DNA of 64,000 nucleotides from Eledone cirrhosa (GCA_964016885.1 OZ024743.1:187736001-187800000), one strand, 5' to 3'. Counted from the first letter of the stretch, positions 47,159 to 49,586 are shown. The notes: generated by a model from the sequence alone, not told the origin. Made by a program: numbers and translations.

Positions 47159-47254
47159 TATATATATATATATATATATATAAAAGACGTAAAATAAGAA
47201 AATATTTTTTAAAAAAATTTAAAAAAAATTTTTTACTTACTTACTTAAATTTTC

Positions 47255-47336
47255 ACTCCAACTAATTAGTTTCTGCAATGGGATAAAGACAGTTACGTAA
47301 TCCAACTGTCGAGAATTCATTGCGTCATCAGGGAGT
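47255..47336 (-). ncRNA. Type I hammerhead ribozyme, unit 1
   Basis: Reverse complement of 49216-49297. Confidence 0.85.
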
Positions 47337-47812
47337 CTATTCTCAGTTAAGTCTCCAGGCAATGCGCGGACACTGGCGGCTCATATAAAAATAATAATAA
47401 TTCGGTAGATCGAACAGCTGGCGAGGACTGGATTCTATGTACCGAAATTCTCACTGCTTCAGGTCAAATGGCCGATTCTAAAGAATCAATCACGTGACAC
47501 AGAGGCTAGTTAGAAGGAATGGGATGGTAAGATGACTGACGCCTACTAACACCCCAAAAAATTTTTTTAGAAGTGATTTTGGCAAGTTTGCTCGACAAAT
47601 CAGTGATTTGGAGATAAATATAGATAATTTAATATATCAACTAACATAAGCGCACAGATGCACGCCCATGCTAGCAAATACACAGGTTATGTCATAGTAC
47701 CTAGGTGGTTCAATGCAGGAGAATGCAGAACAATAATATAAAAGACGTAAAATAAGAAAATATTTTTTTAAAAAATTTTAAAAAATTTTTTTACTTACTT
47801 ACTTAAATTTTC

Positions 47813-47894
47813 ACTCCAACTAATTAGTTTCTGCAATGGGATAAAGACAGTTACGTAATCCAACTGTCGAGAATTCATTGCGTCATCAGGGAGT
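47813..47894 (-). ncRNA. Type I hammerhead ribozyme, unit 2
   Basis: Same sequence as unit 1. Confidence 0.85.
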
Positions 47895-48346
47895 CTATTC
47901 TCAGTTAAGTCTCCAGGCAATGCGCGGACACTGGCGGCTCATATAAAAATAATAATAATTCGGTAGATCGAACAGCTGGCGAGGACTGGATTCTATGTAC
48001 CGAAATTCTCACTGCTTCAGGTCAAATGGCCGATTCTAAAGAATCAATCACGTGACACAGAGGCTAGTTAGAAGGAATGGGATGGTAAGATGACTGACGC
48101 CTACTAACACCCCAAAAAATTTTTTTAGAAGTGATTTTGGCAAGTTTGCTCGACAAATCAGTGATTTGGAGATAAATATAGATAATTTAATATATCAACT
48201 AACATAAGCGCACAGATGCACGCCCATGCTAGCAAATACACAGGTTATGTCATAGTACCTAGGTGGTTCAATGCAGGAGAATGCAGAACAATAATATAAA
48301 AGACGTAAAATAAGAAAATATTTTTTACTTACTTACTTAAATTTTC

Positions 48347-48428
48347 ACTCCAACTAATTAGTTTCTGCAATGGGATAAAGACAGTTACGTAATCCAACTG
48401 TCGAGAATTCATTGCGTCATCAGGGAGT
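48347..48428 (-). ncRNA. Type I hammerhead ribozyme, unit 3
   Basis: Same sequence as unit 1. Confidence 0.85.
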
Positions 48429-49215
48429 CTATTCTCAGTTAAGTCTCCAGGCAATGCGCGGACACTGGCGGCTCATATAAAAATAATAATAATTCGGTAG
48501 ATCGAACAGCTGGCGAGGACTGGATTCTATGTACCGAAATTCTCACTGCTTCAGGTCAAATGGCCGATTCTAAAGAATCAATCACGTGACACAGAGGCTA
48601 GTTAGAAGGAATGGGATGGTAAGATGACTGACGCCTACTAACACCCCAAAACATTTTTTTAGAAGTGATTTTGGCAAGTTTGCTCGACAAATCAGTGATT
48701 TGGAGATAAATATAGATAATTTAATATATCAACTAACATAAGCGCACAGATGCACGCCCATGCTAGCAAATACACAGGTTATGTCATAGTACCTAGGTGG
48801 TTCAATGCAGGAGAATGCAGAAGAATAATATAAAAGATTGAACCACCTAGGTACTATGACATAACCTGTGTATTTGCTAGCATGGGCGTGCATCTGTGCG
48901 CTTATGTTAGTTGATATATTAAATTATCTATATTTATCTCCAAATCACTGATTTGTCGAGCAAACTTGCCAAAATCACTTCTAAAAAAAATGTTTTGGGG
49001 TGTTAGTAGGCGTCAGTCATCTTACCATCCCATTCCTTCTAACTAGCCTCTGTGTCACGTGATTGATTCTTTAGAATCGGCCATTTGACCTGAAACAGTG
49101 AGAATTTCGGTACATAGAATCCAGTCCTCGCCAGCTGTTCGATCTACCGAATTATTATTATTTTTATATGAGCCGCCAGTGTCCGCGCATTGCCTGGAGA
49201 CTTAACTGAGAATAG

Positions 49216-49297
49216 ACTCCCTGATGACGCAATGAATTCTCGACAGTTGGATTACGTAACTGTCTTTATCCCATTGCAGAAACTAATTAGTTGGAGT
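49216..49297 (+). ncRNA. Type I hammerhead ribozyme, inverted unit
   Basis: acucc CUGAUGA c-gcaaug...cauugc-a GAA ACUAAUUAGU U ggagu; predicted cleavage after 49292 (GUU). Confidence 0.85.
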
Positions 49298-49474
49298 GAA
49301 AATTTAAGTAAGTAAGTAAAAAGTTTTTTTAAAAAATATTTTCTTATTTTACGTCTTTTATATTATTGTTCTGCATTCTCCTGCATTGAACCACCTAGGT
49401 ACTATGACATAACCTGTGTATTTGCTAGCATGGGCGTGCATCTGTGCGCTTATGTTAGTTGATATATTAAATTA

Positions 49475-49586
49475 TCTCTCTCTCTCTCTCTCTCTCTCTC
49501 TCTCTCTCTCTCTCTCTCTATATATATATATATATATATATATATATATATATATATATATATATATATATATATATATATATATA
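49475..49586. repeat. (TC)n(TA)n microsatellite
   Basis: Directly visible. Confidence 0.95.

Follow-up and report, generated by a model that had tools for sequence, protein, structure and literature searches.

The window analysed here is a stretch of 64,000 nucleotides from Eledone cirrhosa (GCA_964016885.1 OZ024743.1:187736001-187800000), and coordinates are counted from its first letter. The initial annotation had proposed three near-identical direct units and an inverted arm at 47181 to 49477; this arrangement is present there, and the unit length of 558 bp was borne out. The direct units occupy 47181 to 47738, 47739 to 48296, and 48297 to 48830 (558, 558, and 534 bp; mutual likeness, 99%). 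Their hammerhead-sense strand is the minus strand of the window, on which unit positions are numbered, with 47738 as position 1. Arm A (47181 to 48837, minus strand) consists of three head-to-tail units plus 7 to 8 nt and terminates 3' at start point A, where it abuts (AT)n. Arm B (48837 to 49477, plus strand) is inverted, overlaps arm A by 1 nt at the junction, and contains a 5'-truncated unit (unit positions 25 to 558) followed by the initial 117 nt of another unit, so that its 3' end lies at start point B. This 117-nt tail (49361 to 49477, plus strand) is the sequence between start points A and B and is found at the arm B end of the insertion only. The target is represented by (AT)n at 47158 to 47182 on the left and by (TC)22 followed by (TA)34 at 49475 to 49586 on the right. 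Unit 3 and the inverted arm have in common a change that is absent from all other fetched loci, consistent with either use of the first cDNA as the template for arm B or later conversion.

The unit has a GC content of 36% and encodes no protein. In agreement with the ORF-less character initially assigned to it, the longest stop-free frame of the tandem trimer is 53 aa, and the arms are pure tandem, with no LTR pair around a unique core. A simple pattern search of the sense strand did not find Pol III A or B boxes, and the same strand has seven runs of at least four T residues; on these two grounds, a tRNA- or 5S-derived SINE was rejected as the identity of the unit.

The array is nested in the terminal (TA)n of an older, broken Hydra-like PLE insertion (46409 to 47157, minus strand), which lies outside the unit, shares the left (AT)n as its end, and retains a 171-aa RT remnant (46604 to 47116). 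This older insertion has its own type I hammerhead at 46510 (minus strand), its own inverted tail at ~47090 to 47157 (plus strand), and one A and one B end. Its family, here designated HyN, had 19,217 first-look candidates in the genome. A Naiad identity of the neighboring ORF was ruled out, as the nuclease is C-terminal and carries Hydra motifs. Other elements in the window are long inverted repeats at 45354 to 45807 and 49806 to 50908 (200 nt at 91% and 125 nt at 87%), which are MITE-like or paired SINE-like, and a frameshifted LINE at 50952 to 54567 with endonuclease and RVT_1 matches, which is unrelated to the array. A 278-aa frame at 21650 to 22486 showed weak C2H2 zinc-finger matches, and zinc finger-like 48-bp tandem repeats were also seen at 19161, 24071, and 42584.

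A type I hammerhead scan identified the motif four times in the array, at 47331, 47889, and 48423 on the minus strand and at 49221 on the plus strand, and a type I hammerhead is thus present in at least two consecutive units. The motifs extend over 47243 to 47352, 47801 to 47910, and 48335 to 48444 in units 1, 2, and 3 (minus strand) and over 49200 to 49309 in the inverted arm (plus strand). All of the parts listed initially were matched: stem I acucc/ggagu, CUGAUGA, stem II gcaaug/cauugc, GAA, a 10-nt palindromic stem III, and GUU. The scan placed the predicted cut of the inverted arm after 49292, the position already proposed, and gave 47260, 47818, and 48352 as the final base before the predicted cut in units 1 to 3; in unit numbering, the cut is predicted after position 479. 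An Rfam scan of the array returned no hammerhead family and only chance matches to hairpin and miRNA families, and the motif therefore rests on the type I scan and on covariation.

Covariation was assessed in 87 distinct stem II regions, in 83 to 87 of which the six pairs were standard. One position occurs with four Watson-Crick pairs (C-G, G-C, A-U, and U-A) and another with two (U-A and G-C), while the majority of pairs were lost in slid controls. The predicted C·A mismatch at the first stem II pair is kept in 84 of the 87 regions. Stem II covaries among sibling subfamilies that are ~70 to 75% alike (fetched loci). Retention of the core and of stem II pairing across subfamilies ~70% alike suggests that the ribozyme fold is under selection, the conservation of the core and palindrome being partly built in because the scan demanded both. 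Many of the Hydra hammerheads in File S2 of PMC8557442 have a 1x1 mismatch at the stem II base or a GUU triplet; GUA triplets are also frequent there, and PLE-X1_cBra provides a C·A case. The axolotl Amex2 hammerhead likewise has a mismatch, U·U, at the base of helix II, according to the relevant section of PMC7229834. In folding predictions, the active monomer fold lay 4.7 kcal/mol above a misfold. In a two-unit RNA, the cost is 4.1 kcal/mol for the dimer form and 7.0 kcal/mol for two monomers, the dimer being better by 2.9 kcal/mol, and both active hammerhead folds are predicted to sit 4 to 7 kcal/mol above the free minimum. The predicted circular fold of the unit had a z score of -4.6, and none of 40 shuffles was equally stable.

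The family is dispersed. A 26-nt piece of the hammerhead 3' half matched the 3.0-Gb genome exactly at 4,334 sites, and its reversed control matched nowhere; the motif is therefore not due to chance, and the family is not confined to a single locus. Exact matches numbered 1,187 for an end-A pattern, 685 for an end-B pattern, and 8,940 for a hairpin A pattern, again with no control matches. The best copies are 97 to 99% identical and are spread over many contigs, and the unit is also found in contigs of other sequencing runs, so that the assembly artefact and the single-locus array considered in the initial annotation can both be set aside. Copy number, insertion ends, and covariation support the earlier proposal of a young, non-autonomous tandem family that carries hammerheads and is of the retrozyme or PLE-derived kind. 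Both of these labels apply, but not as the alternatives they were presented as: the unit is of the retrozyme type and inserts with a PLE signature.

Units and arms within an insertion agreed in 8,699 of 8,749 comparisons at non-CpG diagnostic sites (99.4%), compared with 67.6% between loci. Of the private changes, 145 were confined to a single copy, 14 were present in all copies, and 5 in some copies. These values fit arrays that arose at full length from a single template unit, which a circle would provide; a homogeneous multimer donor is also possible. Arms reach ~7 units, and young arms of six to seven units are uniform for recent subfamily variants. In one arm (L142:1501-2381), the subfamily haplotype changes in mid-unit, for which either a template switch between two RNAs or recombination could account. 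At another locus (L125:1257-2299), two near-identical short A+B insertions lie ~500 bp apart and probably represent a local duplication.

The insertion ends were examined in two samples. In the first (30 best-scoring and 30 hammerhead-selected loci), sense 3' ends were located at position 558 (end A) or at position ~121 of the next unit (end B), in both cases at (TA)n, and 5' ends were variable. The copies thus lie in (TA)n and have two fixed ends ~120 nt apart, whose positions are set not by the predicted cut but by two internal start points that follow it at distances of 79 and ~200 nt. The second sample comprised 160 loci of one contig, picked by the exact end-A or end-B pattern, and yielded 264 distinct arms, of which 208 were usable and 206 remained after removal of a duplicated pair; the 56 arms dropped were short, were <85% identical, had another 3' end, or were cut by the locus edge. 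There were 92 distinct inverted junctions. Both ends could be classified in 73, one end being unclassed in the other 19 and one duplicated locus being counted twice, and all 73 joined an A arm to a B arm. As each locus had been selected for one end, this result bears on the other arm.

The insertions display 5' truncation, partial tandems, an inverted 5'-truncated arm, and a tail at one end only, all of which are PLE-type traits, and, like Hydra-clade PLEs, they target (TA)n and have the hammerhead close to the 3' end, the predicted cut lying 79 nt ahead of end A. The tail and inverted arms described for PLEs by Craig et al. 2021 (PMC8557442), in the sections concerned with them, follow the same pattern. 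The A and B ends also fit the in vitro results of Frangieh et al. 2024 (PMC11167929), who observed two internal RT start sites and extension on both strands. In 63 arms without a partner arm, the 5' side was also (TA)n in 28 and another microsatellite in 5; the repeat is therefore mostly target, and its addition as a tail was ruled out for most copies. Outside the microsatellite, a script detected no target-site duplication, and one long duplication was seen by eye at a single locus (L013). Since both ends are fixed, L1-type twin priming from a random internal site was rejected. Fold-back as the sole route was also rejected, because 21 of the 73 length pairs are impossible that way (shuffled mean, 28); mirror junctions were found in 8 of 73 (shuffled mean, 1.5). 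In the window (49475 to 49519) and in 14 of 106 B arms, end B carries a (TC)n run that starts precisely at unit position 117; RT may have slipped on its template when synthesis began, or an imperfect stretch of (TA)n may have expanded afterwards.

Each start point is accompanied by a hairpin with a 4-bp lower stem of the GCUC/GAGC type, a 2-nt 3' bulge, and an upper stem. Hairpin A (unit positions 8 to 31; 47708 to 47731, minus strand) lies 4 nt 3' of start point A and has further copies at 48266 to 48289 (minus), 48800 to 48823 (minus, one change), and 49368 to 49391 (plus). Hairpin B (unit positions 125 to 149; 47590 to 47614, minus strand) lies 3 nt 3' of start point B and recurs at 48148 to 48172 (minus), 48682 to 48706 (minus), and 48937 to 48961 (plus). 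Among the 8,940 copies of hairpin A in the unit superfamily, the stems are kept and the loop is variable. The unit hairpins depart from the consensus, A having a compensated second pair and B a mismatched first pair, and a loose version of the motif has one additional match within the unit.

Four local Hydra-like PLE families carry this pair of hairpins upstream of their ORF. In addition to HyN, three young, intact families were found by using distant proteins: HyY, with a 784-aa frame, and HyZ1 and HyZ2, with frames of ~830 aa. Their ORFs were not recognised by Pfam and were diagnosed as Hydra by the RWR/RWK-like, DKT, and CxCX5C motifs and a C-terminal nuclease, the motifs being those listed for this clade in PMC8557442. 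The features of an autonomous Hydra-clade element, an ORF combining RT and C-terminal GIY-YIG domains with the RWK, DKT, and CxCX5C motifs, are found in HyN, HyY, and HyZ and not in the unit. HyN, HyY, and HyZ each have two ends at (TA)n, and A and B were combined in all five HyY loci that hold both ends; the local Hydra tails are 80, ~100, and ~170 nt long. When read by eye, the hairpin was offset 3 to 5 nt from the insertion end at eight of eight ends of the unit, HyY, HyN, and HyZ, with two loci for each HyZ end. Intact, near-identical Hydra ORFs are abundant in the genome. HyY also occurs in 3,531-bp tandems (L095:1-5094, L078-L107) with a hammerhead that has a U3-A8 core variant and an extended stem III, and the ~830-aa frames of HyZ1 and HyZ2 (L346, L368; L346-L375) are accompanied by the ~170-nt tail and the hairpin pair. 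A Hydra family is listed for Octopus bimaculoides in the supplement of PMC8557442, and Argonauta protein P0072 groups with HyN in a quick tree; the repeat landscape also resembles that of octopuses.

An independent test of the hairpins used the 37 of 78 metagenome Hydra-like loci that match from the protein start. The stricter pattern applied first matched 36 times in 8,197 nt of upstream sequence and 29 times in 73,302 nt of ORF, with one hairpin in 24 and two in 9 of the 37 loci. A relaxed pattern, which had been tuned after the metagenome sequences were viewed, matched 53 times in 5,333 nt upstream of the ORF and 35 times in 74,782 nt of ORF. With this pattern, and counting pattern matches only, two hairpins were found in 20 loci, one in 13 (33 with at least one), and none in 4, compared with two hairpins in 0 of 478 ORF windows. 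About six other repeat families in the Eledone genome carry the same hairpin just after a (TA)n end, and the sequences therefore point to further Hydra-type families or passengers here.

No parent or partner element was identified among the PLEs compared. The unit showed no DNA similarity above chance to HyN, HyY, or HyZ1/2, no ORF remnant was found in it, and a deletion derivative of an identified PLE was rejected because none of these four families has alignable terminal sequence. A copy attached to a PLE ORF, which had been considered at the outset, was not seen among 258 arms in 160 loci or in 40 further loci; these 40, picked on hairpin A, held only sibling non-coding subfamilies. Apparent unit-PLE chimeras at two loci (L140 and L168) proved to be separate insertions nested in the same (TA)n, and a weak antisense tblastn match between a sibling unit and Hydra proteins (best E value, 0.003 over 123 queries) was taken as chance.

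We propose, with a probability of roughly 0.75, that the array is one insertion of a protein-less hammerhead tandem element whose copies, numbering in the thousands, occupy TA microsatellites, and that this element is likely moved in trans by Hydra-clade PLE proteins via the two hairpins. PLE-type mobilisation of the unit is very likely in our judgment, and there is a strong case for a Hydra-clade PLE as the mover. Genomic sequence makes hammerhead cleavage in vivo likely, and a circular template is the somewhat favored form. Phrased as a sequence of steps, a tandem copy would be transcribed from a promoter that our searches did not find. Pairing through the palindromic stem III, two adjacent hammerheads would then form a dimer that cleaves a portion of the RNA, as the folding prediction and an indirect genomic footprint suggest. 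The 558-nt monomer would be circularised and serve as the template, with uncut multimers perhaps serving as templates too. A Hydra RT-endonuclease, probably as a dimer bound to the RNA, would cleave both strands of (TA)n; at the end positions observed, the two 3' ends would pair with short UAU stretches, one located 4 nt before hairpin A and the other 3 nt before hairpin B. Two outward-facing cDNAs would stop at a median of ~500 nt and join with an overlap of 0 to 4 nt, giving one A and one B arm; the order of these events is presumed, whereas in the observed architecture the second arm resembles a fold-back copy of the first in about one-tenth of cases.

The footprint of the predicted cut is an excess of 5' ends, with 24 in the 20 nt after the cut and 5 in the 20 nt before it (P = 0.0005). 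Per 1,000 bases passed, the rate of 5' ends was 4.6 at positions 479 to 498, 1.0 at 459 to 478, and 1.6 at 130 to 478, and the largest upward step over all positions scanned was at position 479. The rate was also raised, to 3.3, in the A/T-rich stretch at 499 to 545, and the footprint may therefore in part be sequence driven. RT stalling at RNA structure or A/T microhomology, in place of self-cleavage, would account for this enriched low-complexity stretch and for the nine ends at 486, just 3' of stem I. We nevertheless consider it an unlikely source of the excess: the 3' edges of stronger helices have none (1.0 at 459 to 478 and 1.2 at 101 to 125), other A/T-rich stretches reach at most 2.5 to 2.7, and four arms in three insertions start at 479 to 480. 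In vitro, hammerhead cleavage was dispensable for insertion and no reads ended at the cut (Frangieh et al., PMC11167929), and eight of nine Xenopus dimers were inactive according to the pertinent part of Li et al. 2026 (bioRxiv 10.64898/2026.07.22.740005).

An estimated ~85 to 90% of passes read through the cut site. This, together with active hammerhead folds that are not the minimum, is what would be expected if PLE proteins copied uncut multimers from tandem donors, the hammerhead being mostly idle or trimming ends, with no circle and with arrays kept by local DNA amplification. Unprocessed RNA was the dominant substrate in vitro (PMC11167929), and local tandem amplification is proposed in the corresponding section of Li et al. 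2026 (bioRxiv 10.64898/2026.07.22.740005). Stepwise local amplification would, however, be expected to leave partly shared private changes, which are rare (5, versus 145 in a single copy), and the uniformity of the young six- to seven-unit arms and the selection suggested by the conserved core and stem II pairing also weigh against this scenario, which we regard as possible but doubtful. A different mover has a small probability. Naiad and Neptune elements also target (TA)n, Naiads are tailed and appear among the elements of Octopus species in File S1 of PMC8557442, and our family searches covered the Hydra type; under a mover from the Naiad or Neptune clade or a LINE, the hairpin likeness would be incidental. 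Against this, the hairpin pair lies at the same offsets as in the Hydra families, intact Hydra ORFs are at hand, and the unit has no poly(A) or LINE-like 3' end. Naiads, moreover, are described in the relevant text of PMC8557442 as having no canonical hammerheads, 30- to 40-bp tails, and long inactivity in cephalopods. It is more improbable still that the unit is the pLTR of an unsampled autonomous PLE and the arrays its 5'-truncation products. The hammerhead position, tail, and hairpins are laid out as in Hydra pLTR/5' UTR regions, and the four PLE families examined are probably a few of many, but the unit repeats head to tail, leading from hairpin B back to the hammerhead in ~240 nt without an ORF and in arms of up to ~7 units, and none of the arms and loci searched continues into a PLE ORF.

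We give even odds to a more specific proposal. The duplicated bulged hairpin of Hydra PLEs would dock two RT-endonuclease protomers on one RNA, each priming one strand 3 to 5 nt upstream, and the 558-nt circle would be a minimal parasite that has both docking sites and a hammerhead and whose insertions record cleavage in vivo. If true, this would explain the tail, the one-A-one-B inverted insertions, and the need for tandem or circular templates, the last because hairpin B falls outside the copied part.

By the sequence-level definition in the relevant parts of PMC7229834, the Li et al. preprint, PMC4209133, and PMC6765202, the unit is a non-LTR retrozyme. The retrozyme class and its PLE link have already been published, and the element is a further member. 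With metazoan non-LTR retrozymes, as characterised in the sections consulted of PMC7229834 and bioRxiv 10.64898/2026.07.22.740005, it shares an ORF-less tandem structure, one type I hammerhead per unit, a GC content of <50%, a self-paired predicted circle, thousands of copies, and co-occurrence with PLEs, and with axolotl HHR_Amex2 the mismatch at the helix II base (PMC7229834). At 558 nt, the unit is longer than the 150 to 450 bp given in PMC7229834 and within the 51 to 972 bp of the Li et al. preprint. It differs from the retrozymes of these texts in its long, two-tier stem II and in being known from genomic sequence, with cleavage and circles predicted. Its short dispersed arrays, inverted arms, two fixed ends, and (TA)n targeting are not described in the relevant text of these sources. 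Among Xenopus retrozymes, 24 of 57 families match a host pLTR, according to the part of Li et al. 2026 that treats them, whereas no match to a host PLE pLTR was found for the unit among the families compared here.

The unit behaves as a non-autonomous Hydra PLE, and we claim no derivation from an identified family. It is like the Hydra-clade PLEs of the pertinent sections of PMC8557442 in (TA)n insertion, a type I hammerhead near the 3' end, a tail at one end, and an inverted 5'-truncated arm, and like those examined here in the hairpin pair; unlike them, it lacks an RT-endonuclease ORF, and nothing beyond the cis motifs can be aligned. The tail of ~120 nt exceeds the 30 to 40 bp of the general PLE description in PMC8557442. 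Chlamys elements such as MRC1, as presented in that source, are also non-autonomous PLE passengers with multicopy head-to-tail insertions, but these green algal elements resemble their autonomous family in the 3' terminal region, and canonical hammerheads are lacking in most Chlamys elements. Poseidon PAc of Anolis (PMC11167929) resembles the unit family in its two internal RT starts delimiting the tail, the cutting and extension of both target strands, AT-rich targets, and a predicted protein dimer. No description of the unit family, the hairpin pair, the A+B rule, or the genomic cut footprint was found in the openly available full-text papers and two supplements searched.

The movement of retrozymes and the tandem, inverted, and tailed insertions of PLEs are described as open in the passages on these subjects in PMC8557442, PMC11167929, and Li et al. 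2026. The family is a large natural data set with a legible mechanism: each strand uses one start site, a conserved RNA element adjoins each start, and the 5' ends retain an apparent trace of ribozyme cutting. It ties a retrozyme to a named PLE clade through cis signals and not through co-occurrence. A 558-nt RNA, two ~25-nt hairpins, and several intact host RT-endonuclease ORFs also make a ready test system. Near the sampled insertions (loci L001-L060) there are eight or more additional hammerhead families in which stem III is palindromic and the stem II base is mismatched in various ways; PLE ends cluster in the same microsatellites at these loci.
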